A stretch of DNA of 64,000 nt from a virus, in IMG/VR virus record IMGVR_UViG_3300032103_000260, positions 114,250-178,249 of that record. One strand, 5' to 3'. Below the pieces are notes generated by a model that saw nothing but the letters and a program-made list of their open reading frames with translations, was not told the origin of the DNA and made no database searches. This document shows positions 46,333-55,082 of this stretch, in pieces (the stretch's first letter is position 1; every line of letters starts with the position of its first letter). Both the position numbers and the translations under genes were made by a program.

Positions 46333-49011
46333 ATGTCCGAAAATAAAGATAGCATAGCTACTTATTTAGGTACAGACTTTCAACTTAAATTGTTGTGGCA
46401 GTTAGTTACCGAAAGTAGTTTTTGCGAAAAGATATTGCCATATCTTGAAGTAGGGTATTTCGATGATCATAATTTTAAAAGATTCTTTATTGTTATTAAA
46501 GAATATTATGATAAATATAAAAAAGTACCGAATCTTCAAAATAAAAGTATTGACCATGCAATAAAAGAATTTCAATTAGATAATGAGATTGATTATGAAC
46601 AATTAATAGGTGTATTAAAACCAATAACTAACTGGCAGGAAGCATGTATTAATGGCGTACTAATGTTCGATGGTGATGCTGTTCAAAAACAAACATGGCA
46701 TTTTATTAAACAGCAAGAATATAAAAAACTTGCAGGTGAAATAATTGAAAAATTAGTTAGAAATAAACTTGATAAAAACGTTCATGAAATAGAGGAACGT
46801 ATTAGAAAGATTGCAGAGGTTGGTGTTGAAGATGATGATGCTGTAGAAATATTTGATAATATTGAAATGGCATTGAGAAAAGAATTTAGAGAACCAATAC
46901 CAACAGGTATTAAAGTTCTTGATGAAGCGACTGGTGGTGGTCTTGGTCGTGGTGAAATAGGTATAATATTAGCCCCAACAGGGGCTGGTAAAGCACAACC
47001 ATTATCATCTAAGATTTTAACTCCCAAAGGATGGAAATTAATGGGTGATATTAAGGTTAATGATTTGATTATTGGATCAAACGGATTATCTCAAAAAGTT
47101 TTGGGTGTGTATCCACAAGGAGTAAGAGATATCTATAGAATTAATTTTAGTGATAATACATCCGTTCTATGTGATAAAGAACATATATGGTCAGTTAATA
47201 GTAGAAAACAAAGAACATCTAAAAGTAAAATAAATGGTAAAACATTTTTAATACCAGACTATACATTTCAACAATTAACTGTTGCTGAAATGATAGATAC
47301 CATAAAAACAAAAAATGGTCATCTTAATTATAGATTGCCAAATCTATCACCAGTAAATTTTGATGTTTTAGATATTAAATTAGACCCATATATACTTGGT
47401 GCTATGCTTGCTGATGGTAATATGACTAAATTTAATCAAGCGAATTTAACGACTGTTGATGATGAAATGGTTGAAGAATTTAAGAAAAGATATTCGAATA
47501 TTAACGTACATGAGTATAATTATGAGAATAGAAATAAAATATATTGTATATCATTGCTTAATAGTCGTAAATTATTAGAAGAATTAAAATTGTATGGTAC
47601 AGATTCATCAACTAAATTTATACCTGAAATATATAAATATAATTCACTTGAAAATCGAATACTATTATTACAAGGTCTAATGGATACTTATGGTACTGTA
47701 TCCAAGAGTGGTTTAGCATCATACTCTACAGTATCAAAAACATTAGCTATGGATATTAGGGAGTTAGTATTATCATTAGGCGGTAGTTGTAAAATAAAAA
47801 CATCACAAAAATATTATAAGAAAAATAATATTAAAATAGCTGGTAAATTATCATATAATTTAAATATTAGTTTTCCAAAAACATTTCAATTTGATATATT
47901 TAGATTATCAAGAAAATTGATTAATTATAAAAAAAGAAATAAGTATGAGCACAATAAATTTATATCATCTATAGAATACTCACACAAAGAAGAAGCTCAA
48001 TGTATTTACGTGGAAAATAGCGATTCGTTATATGTTACTGATGATTATGTATTAACACATAATACCACGATCTTAACTAAGTTTGCTAACCATGCATTTG
48101 AAAGCGGTAAAAATGTACTTCAATTAATTTTTGAAGATACTCCTGATCAAATAAGACGAAAACATTTTACTATATGGTCTGAAGTTCCATTATCAGAGAT
48201 TGATGAAAGAACTGAAGAAGTTACAAGAATTGTTGAGAAAAAACATAATGATGTTCAAAATGAATTTAATAATAAACTAATAATTAAAAGATTTTCACAA
48301 GAGAATACTACATTACCTATGATTAAGGATTATGTGGTTAGATTTCAAAAGAAATATGGCTATAAGTTTGATATTATAATTCTTGATTATATTGATTGTG
48401 TTGATAGTCATAAGAAGGGTAGTGATACTAATGCTGATGAATTAGCAATCATTAAATCATTTGAAGCAATGGCTGCTGAATTTAATATACCATGTTGGAC
48501 TGCTATTCAAACAAATCGTTCTGGTATTGAAAGTGAATTGGTGTATATTAACCATATGGGTGGTAATATTAAGAGAGCACAAAAATCACATTTTTTAATG
48601 TCTATTGCCAGAACACAAGATCAAAAGTTTCATAACTTAGCTAATCTTCAAATATTAAAAGCACGTTTTGCAAAAGATGGTTATGTGTTTAAAGATTGTA
48701 TTTTTGACAATAATACTCTTAAAATTGAAGGAACTGGTGATATGTTTAAGACAAAGAGTAGTGCTGATGACTTTAAAAAAAATGAACCAGAACACTTTAA
48801 CGAAAAGATGAAGAAGCGTAAAACAAAAGAAGAACGTGAAGATATCTTAAAAAATGTAACCAAAGCAATGGAACTTCAAGGTGAAATAAATCTTGATAGT
48901 TTAGATGATGAACCACATGATAATGATAAGTTTCAAGAAAAACTACAAAAATTGAGGGAAGAAAGCCTAAAAAATCAAAATTCTGATGAAAAAGATAAAA
49001 AAAGTGAATAA
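46333..49011 (+). CDS. replicative DNA helicase (DnaB/gp41-like) containing an intein
   Basis: IPTG...LD...GGG..GE..APTGAGK|T Walker A split by intein; ILDYID, WTAIQTNR, ILKAR. Confidence 0.92.
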   Translation: MSENKDSIATYLGTDFQLKLLWQLVTESSFCEKILPYLEVGYFDDHNFKRFFIVIKEYYDKYKKVPNLQNKSIDHAIKEFQLDNEIDYEQLIGVLKPITNWQEACINGVLMFDGDAVQKQTWHFIKQQEYKKLAGEIIEKLVRNKLDKNVHEIEERIRKIAEVGVEDDDAVEIFDNIEMALRKEFREPIPTGIKVLDEATGGGLGRGEIGIILAPTGAGKAQPLSSKILTPKGWKLMGDIKVNDLIIGSNGLSQKVLGVYPQGVRDIYRINFSDNTSVLCDKEHIWSVNSRKQRTSKSKINGKTFLIPDYTFQQLTVAEMIDTIKTKNGHLNYRLPNLSPVNFDVLDIKLDPYILGAMLADGNMTKFNQANLTTVDDEMVEEFKKRYSNINVHEYNYENRNKIYCISLLNSRKLLEELKLYGTDSSTKFIPEIYKYNSLENRILLLQGLMDTYGTVSKSGLASYSTVSKTLAMDIRELVLSLGGSCKIKTSQKYYKKNNIKIAGKLSYNLNISFPKTFQFDIFRLSRKLINYKKRNKYEHNKFISSIEYSHKEEAQCIYVENSDSLYVTDDYVLTHNTTILTKFANHAFESGKNVLQLIFEDTPDQIRRKHFTIWSEVPLSEIDERTEEVTRIVEKKHNDVQNEFNNKLIIKRFSQENTTLPMIKDYVVRFQKKYGYKFDIIILDYIDCVDSHKKGSDTNADELAIIKSFEAMAAEFNIPCWTAIQTNRSGIESELVYINHMGGNIKRAQKSHFLMSIARTQDQKFHNLANLQILKARFAKDGYVFKDCIFDNNTLKIEGTGDMFKTKSSADDFKKNEPEHFNEKMKKRKTKEEREDILKNVTKAMELQGEINLDSLDDEPHDNDKFQEKLQKLREESLKNQNSDEKDKKSE
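46993..48063 (+). mobile_element. class 3 intein (Ala1, WCT signature) with LAGLIDADG domain
   Basis: Starts AQPLSS, block B CDKEHIW, block F AQCI, ends LTHN|T; LAGLIDADG motifs LGAMLADG and LQGLMDTYG. Confidence 0.9.
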
Positions 49012-49085: not shown

Positions 49086-49117
49086 CTTGACAAGAGAAAT
49101 TCTTCGTTTTACATTTG
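49086..49117 (+). promoter_or_regulatory. Bacteroidota-type sigma70 promoter for the RNA operon
   Basis: CTTGACA...TACATTTG (TTG then about 20 nt then TAnnTTTG), ending 11 nt before the first tRNA-like element. Confidence 0.65.
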
Positions 49118-49128
49118 TAAAACAATTG

Positions 49129-49199
49129 GGGAGAGTGGTGAAAATAAACACTACTGTTCGTAAAACTGTAGATTACAGGTTCGATTCCTGTCTCCTCCA
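49129..49199 (+). tRNA. degenerate tRNA / tRNA-like element (identity unclear; GTA or CGT in an abnormal loop)
   Basis: Perfect T arm ACAGG-TTCGATT-CCTGT, acceptor GGGAGAG/CTCCTCC with a mismatch, D loop lacking GG, non-canonical anticodon loop. Confidence 0.6.
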
Positions 49200-49204
49200 C
49201 ATAA

Positions 49205-49227
49205 AATAACAACAGACGGTTGTTATT
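49205..49227. other. perfect hairpin in spacer
   Basis: AATAACAAC-AGACG-GTTGTTATT. Confidence 0.5.
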
Positions 49228-49237
49228 AAGATTTAAT

Positions 49238-49360
49238 GGGAAAACTAAAAGTTATTACAGTAAATTAGCTCAGAGGATAGAGCGTAAACAAGTAAAGTTT
49301 AATGCCGTTGGTTCAACTCCAACATTTACAACCAAAAAAAACAACTTATAAATTATTCCC
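49238..49360 (+). ncRNA. stem-enclosed tRNA-like RNA, copy A (Y-RNA-like candidate)
   Basis: Outer pairing GGGAA/TTCCC and AAGTT/AACTT encloses a cloverleaf 49259-49334 (AGTAAAT..GCTC/GAGC..TAAAC-AAGTAAA-GTTTA..GTTGG-TTCAACT-CCAAC..ATTTACA-A-CCA). Confidence 0.7.
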
Positions 49361-49373
49361 AAACTTATTAAAT

Positions 49374-49446
49374 TGCGAGATAGAGAAGAGGTTATCTCAC
49401 TTGGCTCATAACCAAGAGATCGTTGGTTCGAATCCATCTCTCGCTA
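49374..49446 (+). tRNA. tRNA-Met(CAT), possibly initiator-like
   Basis: Cloverleaf with CTTGG-CTCATAA-CCAAG anticodon arm, TTCGAAT T loop, 1:72 mismatch; CCA not encoded. Confidence 0.85.
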
Positions 49447-49450
49447 CAAA

Positions 49451-49527
49451 GTAAAGTTCCTACAAGTCTCTGATTCGAAAGTTGAATTAAAACCAACCAC
49501 AAAATCAAACTCGTAGGGTAATTTTAC
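49451..49527 (+). ncRNA. orphan long interrupted hairpin
   Basis: GTAAAGTT/AATTTTAC, CCTAC/GTAGG, AGT/ACT, TGATT/AATCA, GTTG/CAAC nested pairings. Confidence 0.5.
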
Positions 49528-49561
49528 AAATCAAAATAGATAATTTTAATTTAAAAATATT

Positions 49562-49689
49562 AAAGGAAAACTATTTGTATTTACAGTAAAATAGTCAAAT
49601 TGAAAAAGACGATTGCCTTAAAAGCAGCAGTTAATTGTGGGTTCAAGTCCCGCTTTTACAACAAAAAAATACAAGACAAATATTCTTTT
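49562..49689 (+). ncRNA. stem-enclosed tRNA-like RNA, copy B (Leu-TAA-derived cloverleaf)
   Basis: Outer AAAGGAA/TTCTTTT and TTGTATTT/AAATACAA enclose 49585-49664 (AGTAAAA..GTC/GAC..TGC-CTTAAAA-GCA..GTGGG-TTCAAGT-CCCGC..TTTTACA-A-CAA). Confidence 0.7.
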
Positions 49690-49700
49690 AAAACATTAAA

Positions 49701-49771
49701 GAAGAACTTTTGGTTTTTTTCAGTATAGGAACTTGCAATATAGTCAAAATATAAAATCAATAAAATTCTTC
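49701..49771 (+). ncRNA. minimal copy C of the same stem motif (no full cloverleaf)
   Basis: GAAGAA/TTCTTC and TTGGTTTT/AAAATCAA, conserved AACT and CAGT; short insert containing CTTGCAA. Confidence 0.6.
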
Positions 49772-49781
49772 AAACTCTCTT

Positions 49782-49820
49782 AAAAAGGTGGTGGGCAAAA
49801 TTTCATCACCTTTTTTTTTT
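49782..49820 (+). terminator. intrinsic terminator of the RNA operon
   Basis: AAAAAGGTGGTGGG-CAAAA-TTTCATCACC followed by T10. Confidence 0.8.
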
Positions 49821-49923
49821 AATTTTATTTTGACGGAATAAAAATGTTTTGTACATTTAAACTCTTGAAACAAAATAACGGCAATAGCTGCATTAATAAA
49901 TTTTAAAAATAAAAAATAGATAT

Positions 49924-51561
49924 ATGGAACAATTGGTATTAACAGCAAAGCAACTATCAGTGATTAAGAAGTCATTAATTGACGGTATTTCTCTTGCAAG
50001 TGGAGCTAGAGGTGGGGCGACATACTATCATTCTAAAGCAGAACAAGATGCAGCAATTAAGAATGCTATTGCAACATTATATTCGCAATCAAAGGAATTA
50101 CCTTTGATCTTGGCGAATCAAAATGGTGCTACAGGTAAGTTTATTCAAGAGGCTCTTTTGAATGAATTTAAGAATACTGCTAATGGTGGTGCTTGCTATA
50201 TTGTTAACCCAATTGACTGGATTGATAACGGTATTTCAGATAAAGCATTACTTGGTGCATTATATAATCTTGATAGAAATGCTGGTATTCCATATGTACT
50301 TCGTTTGTTTGTTTCATTGAAGAATAATAAAATCAACAATGAAAGAGCAAGAAAAATTACTCTTGGATATATTTTTGGTAATTCAAATTTGGAATATAAT
50401 GCTGTTAAATATAGAAACAAGATTAAAGCAATCTTGAAACACGTTTATGGTGTTAAGAAAACATCCATTTTAATTTCTATTGCTGATAAATATGTTAGAA
50501 ATGGTGGTGTTTATTCAAATGAAAAGGAAGCAAAAATTAGTGCAAACTATCTTGAAAAATATTCACCTAATTTTAGTGTTGATAAATTGTACAAGATTTT
50601 CTTGTTTATTTTTGGTAAAGGTGACAAGTCATTCTATACAAAGAATGAGTTTCCAATTATTAGTGAATATTATGTGGCAACACAAGATATTACTGCAGTA
50701 ACTAAAGTTCCTGAAGAAGTATTGGTTGGTTTGGTTTCAAACAAGAAACACCCACAATATTCTGGTATGTGGTCAACTAAGTTGTTGAGAGAATCAACAC
50801 TTGGATTGATTAGAAAGAATACTGAAGTAACTTCAGTTAATCAACAAGTAAGACAAACCAAGAAAAATGAAAAACTTGGTGTAACTAAGGAAGTAAACTT
50901 AGAATCTGCAACTGATTTTATGGCATTGTATAAAACTGGCTATGGAAATGGTTTTGATACTAAATTAAATTCTGCAATCGACAAACTTGCAGAGTCTAAG
51001 AAAATTACTGGTTTTGCATACAATAATATTGGTGTTATAGTTGATACATCAAACTCAATGTATGGAAATAAAGTAGAGTCTAAAAATACTCCAATAGCAA
51101 TTGCAGACTTTACAGTTAAAGTATTGGGTAAATCATCAAAATCACAAGTAGTTGTAAATACTGACGGTGAAACAACTGATATAGCATCAGCATTCATCAC
51201 TTTGTTGAAGAATGAAACTGAACAGAATAAGTTCGATGCTGTATTTGTAATTACTGATGGTTATGAAAATCAGTATGAAGGTTTGGCGGGTGAAGTGATT
51301 GAAACATATTTCAATGAAACACAGAGAGCATTGCCTATCTTCCAGATTTCACCAATTATTAGTGCTGAAATGAATGCTAATGTAAAACCAATTGCAAACA
51401 CTAATGTTGCATTGCTTGCAGTAAGTAATCCTGCATCTATCGGTACTCAAATGAGTGCTAAGTTGCTTGAAGTTGATACTAAGCAGTGGTTGTTAAATCA
51501 AGTAAAATTGATTGAAGCAAACAATGTATCAAGAGTAAGAAAAAATTATGTTAATGCTTAA
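49924..51561 (+). CDS. Ro60/TROVE-like protein: helical N-terminal region + C-terminal vWA domain
   Basis: MIDAS elements IVDTSNSM, TDIA, VITDGYEN; about 360-aa basic helical N-region; 545 aa, similar in size to Ro60. Confidence 0.65.
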   Translation: MEQLVLTAKQLSVIKKSLIDGISLASGARGGATYYHSKAEQDAAIKNAIATLYSQSKELPLILANQNGATGKFIQEALLNEFKNTANGGACYIVNPIDWIDNGISDKALLGALYNLDRNAGIPYVLRLFVSLKNNKINNERARKITLGYIFGNSNLEYNAVKYRNKIKAILKHVYGVKKTSILISIADKYVRNGGVYSNEKEAKISANYLEKYSPNFSVDKLYKIFLFIFGKGDKSFYTKNEFPIISEYYVATQDITAVTKVPEEVLVGLVSNKKHPQYSGMWSTKLLRESTLGLIRKNTEVTSVNQQVRQTKKNEKLGVTKEVNLESATDFMALYKTGYGNGFDTKLNSAIDKLAESKKITGFAYNNIGVIVDTSNSMYGNKVESKNTPIAIADFTVKVLGKSSKSQVVVNTDGETTDIASAFITLLKNETEQNKFDAVFVITDGYENQYEGLAGEVIETYFNETQRALPIFQISPIISAEMNANVKPIANTNVALLAVSNPASIGTQMSAKLLEVDTKQWLLNQVKLIEANNVSRVRKNYVNA

Positions 51562-51572
51562 AGATTAAGACT

Positions 51573-52688
51573 ATGAATACACAGAAAGAATTTGTTGAAT
51601 TACTTAAGGGTTGCAGACTAGTAAAGGATACATCTGGTAATATTGTTGTTCAATCAATCATGAACATGCAATTGGTGTGTTTAACCACTGATAAGGAATT
51701 CTCATTGGATGAAAGATTTGCCAATCCATTTAAAGATGTGAAAGCATCTAATAGTGGTTATGGTAATTTAATCTTTAAGAATAACACCGATAAGGAAGTT
51801 ATTATGCCAACACAATTGGCTGTAATGACTAAGCAATCAGCACAGAATCACGGTATGGTGAAGTCTGCTTATGTACCTAAATCAGCAACAGTTAGATATG
51901 ACGATGCTGGTTGTGTTCAAGGTTCTCAGACAGGTTACATCAGAGATACTAATGATAACGAAATGCGTTTGATTCCAGTATCAATGAGAGAAATGTTGTT
52001 TGATAAGGTAGGTGATACTACTGGTCACTCAAATATTTATCCTGCGATTCAAAAGTTAGGTAGAGATACCAATGCAAACACAGGATATTATCTTGATAAG
52101 TACTTTGATAAGTATGACAAGAAACTTGAACAGTTTATTGCACACTTTGAAAGACCAAAGAATTTGATCGGTACTATTGTATTGATTGATGGTGAAATTG
52201 TTGCAATAGATAAGTTCCCATCATTTACTTATGCTGAACAAGTATGGGATAGACTTATTCGTGATTGCTATGGTTCACTTGCAGTTATAAGTGAATTGAA
52301 AGAAAAGAAGGGTAAAAAAGTCTTTACTGAAGAATATTCTAAAGTTAAGACTGGTGATATACTTAGCAGACTTGAAACTGTTTTGAATAAAACCAAGAAA
52401 AACATTACCAAATCTGTGGAAGATAAGGTAAAAGAATTGCTTGAACTTACTTTCGATTCAACTCTTGATACAACTCTTGATACAACTGGTAATCCAAGTA
52501 GTGTGACTGCATCTGTACCAAAAAGCTATATGTTAAAGCACACTGGCTATGTTGGTCAGGTGATCAGCGAAGAGAATTATCACCACATGGTGAGTCTTGT
52601 AAAGAGAGAAAGATTTGATCCAGAAGCCTTACGTAAGGTGACTGAATTAAAAGCTAAGTCACGTAAACAAAATAATTTTAGTATATAA
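51573..52688 (+). CDS. ARPP-1 (DUF6569)-like protein
   Basis: LIFKN...VIMP......QNH......VP......GCVQ and C-terminal G..VLIDGEIVAIDKF pattern; 11 nt after the vWA gene. Confidence 0.6.
   Translation: MNTQKEFVELLKGCRLVKDTSGNIVVQSIMNMQLVCLTTDKEFSLDERFANPFKDVKASNSGYGNLIFKNNTDKEVIMPTQLAVMTKQSAQNHGMVKSAYVPKSATVRYDDAGCVQGSQTGYIRDTNDNEMRLIPVSMREMLFDKVGDTTGHSNIYPAIQKLGRDTNANTGYYLDKYFDKYDKKLEQFIAHFERPKNLIGTIVLIDGEIVAIDKFPSFTYAEQVWDRLIRDCYGSLAVISELKEKKGKKVFTEEYSKVKTGDILSRLETVLNKTKKNITKSVEDKVKELLELTFDSTLDTTLDTTGNPSSVTASVPKSYMLKHTGYVGQVISEENYHHMVSLVKRERFDPEALRKVTELKAKSRKQNNFSI
52459..52487 (+). repeat. in-frame 12-bp tandem duplication
   Basis: CAACTCTTGATA x2.4 giving TLDT-TLDT. Confidence 0.8.
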
Positions 52689-52709
52689 ATTTGCTTTGTT
52701 TTAGTGTTT

Positions 52710-52744
52710 AAAGCAGTATTTAGCAATAAATACTGCTTTTTTTT
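52710..52744. terminator. intrinsic terminator
   Basis: AAAGCAGTATTTA-GCAA-TAAATACTGCTTTTTTTT. Confidence 0.85.
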
Positions 52745-53068
52745 ATATCATATGGAAGTTTTAATTTTAACACTAATACAAATATTCTTATCCACCTCAA
52801 GAATACTATTACTAATAGTACAGGATATTATAAAAAATGGTGTCTATATCTTTTTAAAAAGATAATTATCTACTTATTGGGAATACTTAAAAATTCTTAT
52901 AATTTTAGGTTTTTAATAACAATTTAATCTATTAAATCGTATAATATCTATATGAATATTTGGCTTGACGATTAATCAATAAAAAATAAATAAGACTCTT
53001 TCTGAAAATAATAAATTACAAAAAAAGGCTAAAAAAAAACTTAAAAAGAAACCATTAAAAAAATAAGT

Positions 53069-54064
53069 ATGAGAGATGCTACTATTGAAATTGTATCAAA
53101 TGTAATTAATCACCCAAATGCCGACCGATTAGATATTTGTACGGTATTAGGTTATCAGTGTGTAACTAAAAGAGATCAATTTAAGGTTGGAGATAAAGTG
53201 GTTTATGTCCGTCCTGACAGTGTATTTCCTGATTCTGAATGGGCACAAGAATATAAGAAGTATTCACAAAAGAGAGTGAAAGCCCTAAAACTTAGAGATT
53301 TTTGGAGCGAAGGTATTATTATTCCTTTCGATGCTTTACCACCAATAATGGCTGAAGCAGCCAAAGATTGCCTTATTGGTGATGATGTGTCTGAATTACT
53401 TTGGATAAGTCATTATGAATCACCTGCACCAACTGACTTATCTGCAAAAGGTGGTTTACCATATGGTATTCCTATGACTGATGAAGAAAGATGGGAAAAT
53501 TTTGATCAATCAAAATTACCGTTTGGTGAATTGGTTGACCTATTCTTAAAAGTTGATGGTCAAAGTAATTCATTTTATCGTCACTTTACTGATAAAGTAT
53601 TTGGTGTTTTAGGTAGAAAACTTGAGTTAAAACCTGAATTATCAAATAACTATACCAATAATGTTTCTCGTTATGATATTGAAAGAAAACTAACTGAGTT
53701 TAGTGAAAAATATCAAATGTCAATCGTTATTCGTGGTGAGTCATATGGTACTGGTATTCAAACTATGGAAATCAACCCATACTCAAAACTAAGTAATGGT
53801 TGGGCAATGTTTTCAGTTTATTTGATTGATGAACGTAGATATGCACGTAAGGGTGAGCCATTCTATTTCCTTAATGTAGCTAAAGAATTGGATTTGCCTA
53901 CTGTTAAACTGGTGGAAGAAAATGTGGTTCTTACTCCAGAATTAATTAAAAAATATTCTGAAGAGTTAAAAGAATTGTATGGTAAACCATTTGAAGGTAT
54001 TGTAGTACAACACAATAAAGGAAGTTTCAAAATAATAAATAAACACTATGACTCAAATAAATAA
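53069..54064 (+). CDS. RNA ligase, DRB0094 family (ATP-dependent, N-terminal OB domain)
   Basis: HPNADRL OB-fold start; nucleotidyltransferase motifs KVDG, RGESYG, FSVY, EGIVV, FKIIN. Confidence 0.88.
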   Translation: MRDATIEIVSNVINHPNADRLDICTVLGYQCVTKRDQFKVGDKVVYVRPDSVFPDSEWAQEYKKYSQKRVKALKLRDFWSEGIIIPFDALPPIMAEAAKDCLIGDDVSELLWISHYESPAPTDLSAKGGLPYGIPMTDEERWENFDQSKLPFGELVDLFLKVDGQSNSFYRHFTDKVFGVLGRKLELKPELSNNYTNNVSRYDIERKLTEFSEKYQMSIVIRGESYGTGIQTMEINPYSKLSNGWAMFSVYLIDERRYARKGEPFYFLNVAKELDLPTVKLVEENVVLTPELIKKYSEELKELYGKPFEGIVVQHNKGSFKIINKHYDSNK

Positions 54065-55082
54065 AATAATTAATCCAGAACATGTTGGTGATTATGGTTA
54101 TTATTTAAATATGAGGTATATTTATGATGTAATGAAAATTAGTGGTGATAATGCTTTACACTACAAATCATTTAAAAACGATAATAATCCCGAAAAGAAT
54201 GTTGAGGTACTTCAAAGTTTAGCAAAATTTGGTTATTTGCTACTTATTGAGTATGATATGGAAAAACATTTAGTACATAAAACATATAAGTCATATATTA
54301 TTGTTGGAGATAAAATTATTCATTATTTCTGTACTAAATTTAAGAATCATAAATCGGTTAATGACTTATTAGCTGATTATGAAAAGGTAATTGATAAAAG
54401 TGATAATGTATATTTCCTTATAGCGAACAACTATAGTATGGAAAAAATACCATTAACACTGCCTAACTTTGAATTATTTGAAGAAAACTATAACATCAAT
54501 TTCACTATTGATGAATTAAAAGAAAAACTATCATTAATAGAAGTGGATTGATGACGTTTATGGGCGATCCCGGTACGGGGAAATCCTATCTCATTAAACA
54601 CTTAATCAAAAACGTTAATAAGGAGTTTATTTATGTCACTCAGGACATGGTACAATTTTTTTTTGAATCAAAAAATATTGGTTTTGTGTTAAAAAATCTT
54701 AAGGATAACATTCTTATTCTTGAAGATAGTGAGAATCTTTTTGCTGATAGAAAAAAACAAAATAACACCACAATATCAACAATATTAAATCTTTGTGATG
54801 GTATTATGGGTGACCTTTTCAGAATAAAGATTATAGCAACCATCAATGTGAAATAGAATATTGATAGCCTTATTTAGAAAAGGAAGATTACTTGCAGAGG
54901 TTAACTTTGAAAAGTTATCTGTTGATGTATCTAATAAGGTTTTGGAACGTATGGGAAGTGATAGACGAGTTGATGATGAGTCAACCCTTGCTGAACTATA
55001 TAATAGTGATAATAATGGTCACCATGATAGTAGATCATTAATTGGCTTTCAACCATCAGGAAGCAAATTATTTATAAAGTAG
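54048..55082 (+). pseudogene. AAA+ ATPase broken into three frames
   Basis: Walker A GDPGTGKS and Walker B ILEDSE in one frame, ALFRKGRL in another; frameshift near 54530, TAG plus frameshift near 54855-54865. Confidence 0.75.

Follow-up and report, generated by a model that had tools for sequence, protein, structure and literature searches.

A candidate Ro60-type ribonucleoprotein locus of a phage, with tRNA mimics on a shared RNA handle

What is encoded in a 0.9-kb gap, free of open reading frames (ORFs), that lies between a helicase gene (46333-49011) and a 545-aa ORF (49924-51561) of IMG/VR virus record IMGVR_UViG_3300032103_000260, and how does it relate to the genes that follow? The gap falls in the window, by which we mean the whole 64,000-nt stretch of DNA that was analysed (positions 114,250 to 178,249, the last 64 kb of a 178,249-bp record with 29% G+C and a CheckV completeness of 60%). 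Coordinates below are those of the window, and the elements from 49087 to 54064 all lie on its plus strand. An initial annotation, made from the sequence alone, had placed here a promoter-to-terminator RNA unit with three copies of a structured motif, two of them enclosing tRNA-like cloverleaves, followed by a two-gene operon and an RNA ligase gene, and had read the whole as a diverged Ro60/Y-RNA system. Every element so described was recovered in place, while a tRNA-Met gene (49374-49447) and a tRNA-like remnant (49129-49200) had been overlooked. We consider it likely, at a probability of roughly 0.7, that the locus encodes a diverged Ro60-type ribonucleoprotein system that displays tRNA mimics.

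The shared handle

The RNA unit (49087-49824; 28% G+C) runs from a promoter-like site to an intrinsic terminator and brackets three modules, A (49238-49360), B (49562-49689) and C (49700-49772), which sit 150-690 nt upstream of the 545-aa ORF on the same strand. The modules share a handle. Its 5' side consists of an outer helix, P1, of 5-7 bp, an internal loop that opens with an invariant AAC, a second helix, P2, of 7-8 bp and an invariant CAGUA junction; its 3' side comprises the P2 partner, an A-rich loop of 5-8 nt and the P1 partner. In module A, P1 pairs 49238-49242 with 49356-49360 and P2 pairs 49249-49255 with 49341-49347, with AAC at 49243-49245 and CAGUA at 49258-49262. The equivalent positions in module B are 49562-49568/49683-49689 (P1), 49575-49582/49667-49674 (P2), 49569-49571 (AAC) and 49584-49588 (CAGUA), and those in module C are 49700-49706/49766-49772 (P1), 49710-49717/49753-49760 (P2) and 49721-49725 (CAGUA). 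Minimum free energy (MFE) folding of the single sequences recovers P1 in all three modules and P2 in B and C, at modest z-scores (-1.4 to -1.8), as expected at 28% G+C. When the 3' partners of the 5' handle halves were sought by a free computational search, the outcome stood out little from shuffled controls in DNA so rich in AT, and type-specific alignments were used instead. Given the modest folding scores of single sequences, the real evidence for the handle is comparative.

For the comparison, 361 homologues close to the 545-aa protein in length were assembled (55-93% identity, none annotated by name, on contigs of up to 357 kb) and 79 IMG/VR loci were retrieved. Every related locus with enough sequence has three to six copies of the handle motif upstream of the gene, and after de-duplication the related viral loci yielded 249 distinct copies of its 20-nt 5' part. 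Alignments were made by module type (the types are described below), with 42 type-2 modules in alignment A3, 42 type-4 modules in alignment A4, and type-5 modules, which include module C of the window, aligned jointly with type 3. Run blind on the alignments of types 3, 2 and 4, RNAalifold returned P1 and P2 every time, together with the cloverleaf stems of types 2 and 4. Across the 12 handle pairs of the 42 type-2 modules, 99.0% of the cells form standard pairs, compared with 48-64% when the partners are slid by 1-3 columns. Compensatory changes on both sides are found in nine of these 12 pairs, where shuffling gives a mean of 2.8 and none of 500 shuffles reaches nine. P1 also covaries between module types inside one locus, and the unpaired AAC and CAGUA have near-zero entropy. 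This combination of conserved helices with invariant unpaired bases looks like a putative site of sequence-specific protein binding. We also considered the handle as a genome-wide promoter or processing signal and rejected this, since the 20-nt motif is confined to the RNA-unit locus within the 178-kb record and is absent from the 20 ordinary tRNA genes found elsewhere in it.

A Ro60-like protein and its ARPP-1 partner

The ORF downstream of the RNA unit (49924-51561) encodes a 545-aa protein in which a predicted helical, TROVE-like ring part (about residues 8-358) is followed by a C-terminal vWA domain with a MIDAS motif. An AlphaFold2 model built from 27 sequences (predicted local distance difference test, pLDDT, 77.6; predicted template modelling score 0.69) was compared with known structures, and its best 12 Foldseek matches in the PDB are all Ro60, Rsr or TROVE proteins (E 4e-6 to 9e-4), including the Ro60 of Thermus phage phiLo. 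VIA-align superposes residues 16-522 of the model on Xenopus Ro60 at Z 16.2 (root-mean-square deviation 4.5 over 409 residues), on phiLo Ro60 at Z 13.8-14.2 and on Deinococcus Rsr at Z 12.3; overall, the Xenopus, human, Deinococcus and phage proteins align with this span of the predicted model at Z 12.2-16.2 over 386-412 residues. Matches to non-Ro structures are limited to the vWA part (residues 339-531; Z at most 11.5). In BFVD, the best matches include phage proteins labelled 'Ro-like RNA binding protein' and 'TROVE domain-containing protein'. The MIDAS residues D374, S376, S378, T444 and D445 are invariant in 27 homologues, and distant homologues also keep D, S, S and DGYEN. By its model, the protein thus has the full Ro60 architecture, a helical ring plus a vWA domain with an intact MIDAS, in line with the TROVE-like fold that the initial annotation had anticipated.

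The second gene of the operon (51573-52688) begins 11 nt after the stop codon of the first and encodes a member of the ARPP-1 family (Pfam PF20208; E 4e-15, 56.3 bits against a curated cut-off of 27). Residues Q91, H93, C114, R139, E193, R230 and C232 are retained across 58 homologues from phages and bacteria. Iyer et al. (2022, PMC9503650) described the members of the family as probable enzymes in which a Cys and a Gln are absolutely conserved; the eukaryotic ARPP-16/19 proteins are unrelated to it despite the name and were set aside. A promoter-like site of the operon (49830-49859) consists of TTG, a 19-nt spacer and TACATTTA, and a terminator-like hairpin, called from sequence, follows ARPP-1 at 52710-52739.

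We further find that the handle, the Ro60-like gene and the ARPP-1 gene travel together in viral contigs, and that the gene pair recurs in bacteria. The related viral loci are all collinear, with two conserved genes, the helicase gene, an RNA region of 0.9-4 kb, the 545-aa gene, ARPP-1 and structural-looking genes in this order. An IMG/VR-wide scan with a handle pattern of 17 specified bases returned 69 stretches, 24 of which have too little flank. In all 36 informative stretches, the Ro60-like gene lies 0.2-3 kb downstream on the same strand, which, with the covariation described above, bears out the expectation that homologous loci carry the RNA motif. The remaining nine matches are chance occurrences in coding DNA (seven in one helicase-like gene, two singletons) that lack the handle architecture.

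Distant homologues of the Ro60-like protein (20-29% identity) are present in 61 loci of bacterial and archaeal genomes in GTDB, including complete Planctomycetota and Myxococcota chromosomes as well as Bacteroidota and archaeal metagenome-assembled genomes (MAGs). ARPP-1 lies directly downstream in 55 of these 61 cellular-genome loci. R1, a covariance model built from the type-4 module, finds full-length handle or permuted tRNA-like RNAs directly upstream of the gene in loci L119, L083, L085, L089, L120 and L125, the permuted tRNA-like RNAs occurring in Bacteroidota and Myxococcota loci. Partial R1 matches in bacterial loci (positions 34-110 of the model) were rejected as junctions of tandem tRNA genes. 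Among bacterial chromosomes and MAGs, the gene pair also sits inside tRNA arrays of 18-39 genes within ~11 kb (L125, L097, L087, L088, L120, L122, L126, L129, L132 and L138). For example, 39 tRNA genes surround the pair within 11 kb in Minicystis rosea (L125, CP016211.1). A separate observation concerns L082 (JBAZIW010000001.1; 362,763 bp), which is labelled as a Candidatus Paceibacterota MAG and contains a phage-type module (R1 at 157 bits); it is probably a huge-phage contig binned into a bacterial MAG.

tRNA mimics and other elements of the locus

The inserts carried by the handle in related viral loci fall into five types. Type 1 is a T-arm module with a tRNA-like 3' strand at its end, type 2 is a complete non-permuted tRNA-like cloverleaf, type 3 is a short non-tRNA insert, and type 5 is a terminal module beside the terminator. 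Type 4 is a circularly permuted tRNA to which the handle is joined at the variable-loop position, and its elements follow in the order T arm, acceptor 3' strand (often with ACCA), linker loop, acceptor 5' strand, D arm and anticodon arm. Modules A and B of the window are of type 2, and module C, with its short non-tRNA insert, is of type 5. The cloverleaf of A (49259-49334; Rfam tRNA 49.3 bits) has the anticodon GUA in the loop AAGUAAA (49292-49298) and encodes an ACCA end; that of B (49585-49662; 46.5 bits) has the anticodon UAA in the loop CUUAAAA. Both exceed the Rfam tRNA threshold of 29 bits, and both are also matched by R1 (E 3e-8 for A and 3e-6 for B).

Both cloverleaves of the window are non-permuted, with an open acceptor stem that runs into the handle. 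The initial annotation took this insert to be unlike YrlA loci, which is true of the window; among relatives, however, this handle also carries permuted YrlA-like mimics, which brings the family nearer to YrlA than one would judge from the window by itself. The T arm, D arm and closed acceptor stem of a permuted tRNA-like domain are found in type-4 modules from 42 relatives and in bacterial loci. In one of the nearest relatives, L003, the handle is kept and the tRNA body is swapped for unrelated sequence.

Canonical elongator tRNAs combine U33, a paired 1-72 position and fitting identity elements, and A and B do not: both have an A1-A72 mismatch, A has A33 in addition, and one scaffold with a short variable region bears Tyr and Leu anticodons in the window and Leu and Ser anticodons in L001, the other nearest relative. 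A subset of modules has non-canonical T loops. The anticodon loops are the highest-entropy columns of the type-2 and type-4 modules, with 27 different loops among 42 type-2 modules, 26 among 42 type-4 modules and 24 different anticodon triplets overall. Triplets that read stop codons are among the commonest, UCA occurring nine times and UUA seven times.

U33 is absent from 21 of 83 loops, including that of window A, and the absences include all 17 of the loops with G34-U35 (Tyr/His/Asn/Asp-type) compared with four of the 66 others (Fisher 3e-14, uncorrected for shared ancestry). Both window A and the module 1 remnant (loop at 49158-49164) obey this GUN-without-U33 rule. tRNA-guanine transglycosylase and colicin E5-type nucleases read U/Y33-G34-U35, and the rule, set against such enzymes, is a lead. 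We further note that the RNA unit is ~95% identical between the window and L001 and that the differences concentrate in three places: a 69-nt deletion in module 1, the anticodon arm of A, with 10 differences in 17 bases and pairing retained, and the anticodon loop of B, which has a 3-nt indel. Hypervariable anticodon loops of this kind fit a role in conflict.

The RNA unit contains several further elements. Its promoter-like site (49087-49117), kept in L001 and in more distant loci, consists of TTG (49087-49089), a 20-nt spacer and TACATTTG (49110-49117), and we take it to be of the Bacteroidota type (TTG / TAnnTTTG), by likeness to Bacteroides promoters. The module 1 remnant, left over from a fourth module (49129-49200; detected by ARAGORN and by Rfam tRNA at 45.5 bits, anticodon GUA) retains the acceptor stem, the T arm and an anticodon-like loop with C33-GUA. 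Pairwise alignment identifies the 69 nt by which it is shorter than its L001 counterpart as the handle hairpin; the long form of module 1 is present in relatives. A perfect 9-bp hairpin with a 5-nt loop (49203-49227), identical in L001, lies between this remnant and module A. Between modules A and B lies the tRNA-Met(CAU) gene (49374-49447; Rfam 62 bits), which has no handle, a U1-U72 mismatch and an A73 discriminator; no other RNA of the array is as well conserved, and nearly all related loci have it. Its unpaired 1-72 position resembles initiator tRNA, yet its anticodon stem lacks the three G-C pairs. It is followed by a 77-nt interrupted hairpin (49451-49527; MFE -16.9 kcal/mol, z -3.69) that is distinct from the handle modules and is kept in L001, where one change looks compensatory. 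The unit closes with the intrinsic terminator (49782-49824), a 14-bp stem (49782-49815) and a T run, which is kept in L001. The 20 ordinary tRNA genes of the record, all without a handle, form two dense clusters outside the window (record positions 61074-69772); one has a four-base anticodon call and none has a GUA anticodon.

Beyond the operon, an RNA ligase of the Rnl5 type (DraRnl/NgrRnl, DRB0094) is encoded at 53069-54064, with an N-terminal OB fold and a nucleotidyltransferase domain (Pfam PHA02142 OB fold and RNA_ligase). It matches NgrRnl (5COT) at E 7e-23 and TIGR02306 at E 1e-31 (110 bits, under the equivalog cut-off of 151). The DRB0094-type ligase of the initial annotation is therefore present, but it is not a conserved member of the locus: among the related loci it is shared only by the two nearest, L001 and L003, and it sits behind its own terminator-like and promoter-like sites. 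It is a lineage-specific accessory outside the conserved module. The OB fold of the ligase (residues 9-90, 53069-53340) has a weak match to the tRNA-binding region of bacterial PheT (E 2e-4). Among the flanking genes, the DnaB-type helicase gene (46333-49011) has an intein-like insertion, with LAGLIDADG_3, Hom_end and Hint matches at about residues 237-513, that is absent in most relatives, where tblastn aligns residues 1-225 and 578-891 only. A 102-aa ORF (54548-54856; 75% identity in L003) matches only the N-terminal P-loop part of AAA ATPases and may be a short ATPase or a fragment.

Proposed particle, alternative readings and known systems

The reading that we favour can be set out as follows. 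A host-type promoter and the terminator would delimit a polycistronic small-RNA unit, and a separate promoter would drive the operon of the Ro60-like and ARPP-1 genes. By analogy with the binding of the Y-RNA terminal stem by Ro60, the Ro60-like ring would bind the handle, each handle RNA would present its tRNA mimic on the particle, and ARPP-1 would serve as a coupled effector or cofactor. Because the anticodon loops change fast even between phages whose RNA units are ~95% identical, we read the particle as one that would take part in a conflict centred on tRNA. One possibility is that it serves as bait for, or blocks, host enzymes that cleave or modify anticodon loops; another is that it brings in tRNA-handling enzymes so that damaged tRNA is surveyed and repaired. 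The Rnl5-type ligase would have been added in the lineage of the window as an accessory sealing enzyme. An extension of the bait view, which we offer tentatively and regard as more doubtful than the particle itself, is a re-targetable platform with a constant handle, swappable mimics tuned phage by phage to the anticodon nucleases or modifiers of the host, and ARPP-1 as the catalytic arm. On such a platform, GUN loops without U33 would no longer fit enzymes that read U33-G34-U35, ARPP-1 would dock on the vWA/MIDAS face and trap, mark or repair the captured target, and the bacterial module would guard or service whole tRNA arrays.

Several results weigh against a Ro60-type particle. The 545-aa protein has no match in Pfam, NCBIfam or PHROGs, the TROVE profile (Pfam PF05731) detects neither it nor any of 10 distant homologues, and profiles A1 and A6 of the Ro60-like family matched nothing among PDB sequences. 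Since no match was obtained at the sequence level, we infer Ro60 homology from the predicted fold, with a template modelling score of ~0.45. The AlphaFold2 model of ARPP-1, made from a shallow alignment, has a pLDDT of 47 and is too poor for structure searches or for conclusions on activity or docking. On the RNA side, an Rfam scan of the RNA region of the window at E up to 10 gave no family besides tRNA, and so no Y-RNA family, and the Rfam Y-RNA families had no match in four relatives at E up to 1. The Ro-binding motif GNCGAAN0-1G, or CGAA, is missing from the handles of the window, which read AAC followed by UAAAAG, UAUUUG or UUUUGG; AACGAAAAG is read by only some type-4 modules of relatives, AAC being the invariant part. 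The collinearity of the phage clade makes adjacency within it weak evidence when taken alone. Finally, A and B score above the Rfam tRNA threshold and A encodes ACCA, so that they could be released as working tRNAs.

This last point leads to an explanation that we judge unlikely but that accounts for part of the data, in which the modules give rise to ordinary decoding tRNAs, suppressor and replacement tRNAs among them, the handle is a leader-trailer duplex that aids processing or stability, and the Ro60-like protein is at most a transient chaperone. One scaffold, however, carries at least 24 anticodon triplets, including those for Leu, Ser and Tyr, without a long variable arm. Leu, Ser and Tyr synthetases need such an arm. 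The UCA and UUA anticodons could read stop codons, and none of the 20 ordinary tRNA genes in the record, which is 60% complete, has a GUA (Tyr) anticodon, as would suit suppressors or replacements; yet these ordinary genes are without handles, U33 is missing from 21 of the 83 loops, the 1-72 position is mismatched in both A and B, and some T loops are non-canonical. The placement of the bacterial gene pair in true tRNA arrays also speaks for decoding tRNAs, as does the YrlA of M. smegmatis, which is cut by RNase P and receives CCA (PMC4201824). On the other hand, module C and the type-3 modules have the handle but contain no tRNA, L003 retains the handle after loss of the tRNA body, and the circularly permuted type-4 modules cannot yield a one-piece tRNA. 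A generic duplex is also hard to reconcile with the invariant unpaired AAC and CAGUA, which favour recognition by a sequence-specific protein.

The protein that recognizes the handle might instead be ARPP-1 or a host factor, with the Ro60-like protein serving other (misfolded) RNAs and adjacency reflecting co-regulation. Such an arrangement would explain why the handle is unlike the known Ro60-binding motif and why ARPP-1 is linked to the locus as strictly as the Ro60-like gene. We nevertheless hold it to be quite improbable, because in all studied Ro60 systems the adjoining small RNAs with a terminal stem are ligands of Ro60 (PMC4201824, PMC12135203) and because the linkage between RNA and gene is also found outside the collinear phage clade. 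Still less credence can be given to the repeated motif being a promoter, a terminator, another DNA-level signal or a chance repeat in AT-rich DNA. Although the 28% G+C, the search for 3' partners that came out near shuffled controls and the modest z-scores of -1.4 to -1.8 speak for such a reading, the compensatory changes on both strands of P1 and P2 already contradict this explanation, and the motif lies within one promoter-terminator unit and nowhere else in the genome.

Known Ro60 systems offer several points of comparison for the particle that we favour. Ro60 genes adjoin Y RNAs with tRNA-like domains in 254 bacteria and 22 phages (PMC4201824). Like the Rsr systems with YrlA and YrlB (Salmonella rsr-yrlBA-rtcBA, M. 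smegmatis, mycobacteriophages; Chen et al. 2014, PMC4201824), the locus encodes a ring-plus-vWA protein beside same-strand small RNAs whose paired ends form a terminal stem and whose body mimics tRNA (T arm, D arm and acceptor stem); a frequent link to RNA-repair ligases is also shared. As with YrlA, the RNAs lie within ~4 kb of the Ro60-like gene on its strand, the terminal stem is bulged (P1, internal loop and P2, backed by covariation), and relatives of the window bear circularly permuted mimics with a closed acceptor stem. Unlike Rsr, the phage protein is missed by the TROVE profile and by all sequence methods, and its obligatory partner is ARPP-1 rather than RtcB/RtcA or PNPase. The handle signature is AAC in the internal loop and CAGUA at the junction, where YrlA has GNCGAAN0-1G, and three to six RNAs are encoded per locus. 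The mimics of the window differ from YrlA in being non-permuted, with a full anticodon arm and hypervariable anticodon loops, and in the permuted relatives the handle joins at the variable-loop position, whereas the junction of YrlA is at the anticodon stem. We therefore file the locus as a variant of the Ro60/Y-RNA kind and not as a YrlA member: it lacks the CGAA-type motif, the mimics of the window are not permuted, and several traits are new, namely the handle itself, the presence of several RNAs in each locus, anticodon arms that are both intact and hypervariable, the obligatory ARPP-1 and the link to tRNA arrays.

Thermus phage phiLo provides another phage Ro60 with Y-like RNAs (Yrl1 and Yrl2) just upstream, and its protein is a structural match (PDB 9KOP, 9L5Y; PMC12135203). 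Binding of the two upstream RNAs by phiLo Ro60 has been demonstrated by electrophoretic mobility shift assay and cryo-electron microscopy (PMC12135203). The phiLo RNAs differ in being simple stem-bulge-stem structures with CGAA and no tRNA-like domain, and the phiLo system has no ARPP-1 partner and is proposed to act via the host PNPase. In the Rsr-Yrn1-PNPase complex of Deinococcus radiodurans (RYPER), a Y RNA with tRNA-like features tethers the Ro60 ring to an effector enzyme, as envisaged here; the RYPER effector, however, is an RNA-bound host exoribonuclease, whereas the sole invariant partner here is the gene-coupled ARPP-1.

The ARPP domain, with the same absolutely conserved Cys and Gln, is also found in systems centred on ADP-ribosylglycohydrolase (Iyer, Burroughs, Anantharaman and Aravind 2022, PMC9503650), a paper that notes ties to vWA chaperones and conflict systems. 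The neighbours there are ADP-ribosylglycohydrolase with rhodanese-phosphatase, HIRAN, WYL and deacetylase proteins, and those contexts, unlike the present one, have no Ro60-like partner, tRNA mimics or tRNA arrays (PMC9503650). Phage and bacterial tRNA arrays (PMC4758250, PMC5966550) resemble the locus as dense sets of tRNAs or tRNA-like RNAs on mobile DNA. In arrays and altered phage tRNAs, as here, variation of the anticodon loop is the apparent target of selection. Phage tRNAs with changed anticodon loops escape host anticodon nucleases, as work on phage T5 has shown. Array tRNAs differ from the present RNAs in having no handle and no reported link to a Ro60-like/ARPP-1 pair, and many of the loops here break tRNA rules by lacking U33. 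Full-text literature searches returned no paper that links tRNA arrays, ARPP or the AAC/CAGUA handle with Ro60, and TROVE proteins of jumbo phages receive only passing mention (PMC7824862).

Taken as a whole, the locus looks to be part of a Ro60/Y-RNA branch that has not been described before and that is tied to conflicts over tRNA. The lineage is widespread: its clusters number in the hundreds, from metagenomes as well as from Planctomycetota, Myxococcota and Bacteroidota. It escapes the TROVE profile, so that profile-based surveys under-count Ro60 systems. ARPP-1 gains a concrete RNA context. Conservation of Ro60 and Y RNAs extends from bacteria to humans, and to the question of what the tRNA-like half of bacterial Y RNAs does the branch brings readable clues: many paralogous RNAs on one handle, tRNA mimics in at least three topologies, anticodon loops as the fastest-evolving part of the RNA, an obligatory enzyme-like partner and a bacterial module inside tRNA arrays. 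The proposal that Ro60 particles work on or against the tRNA pool thereby becomes directly testable in a phage-host setting.

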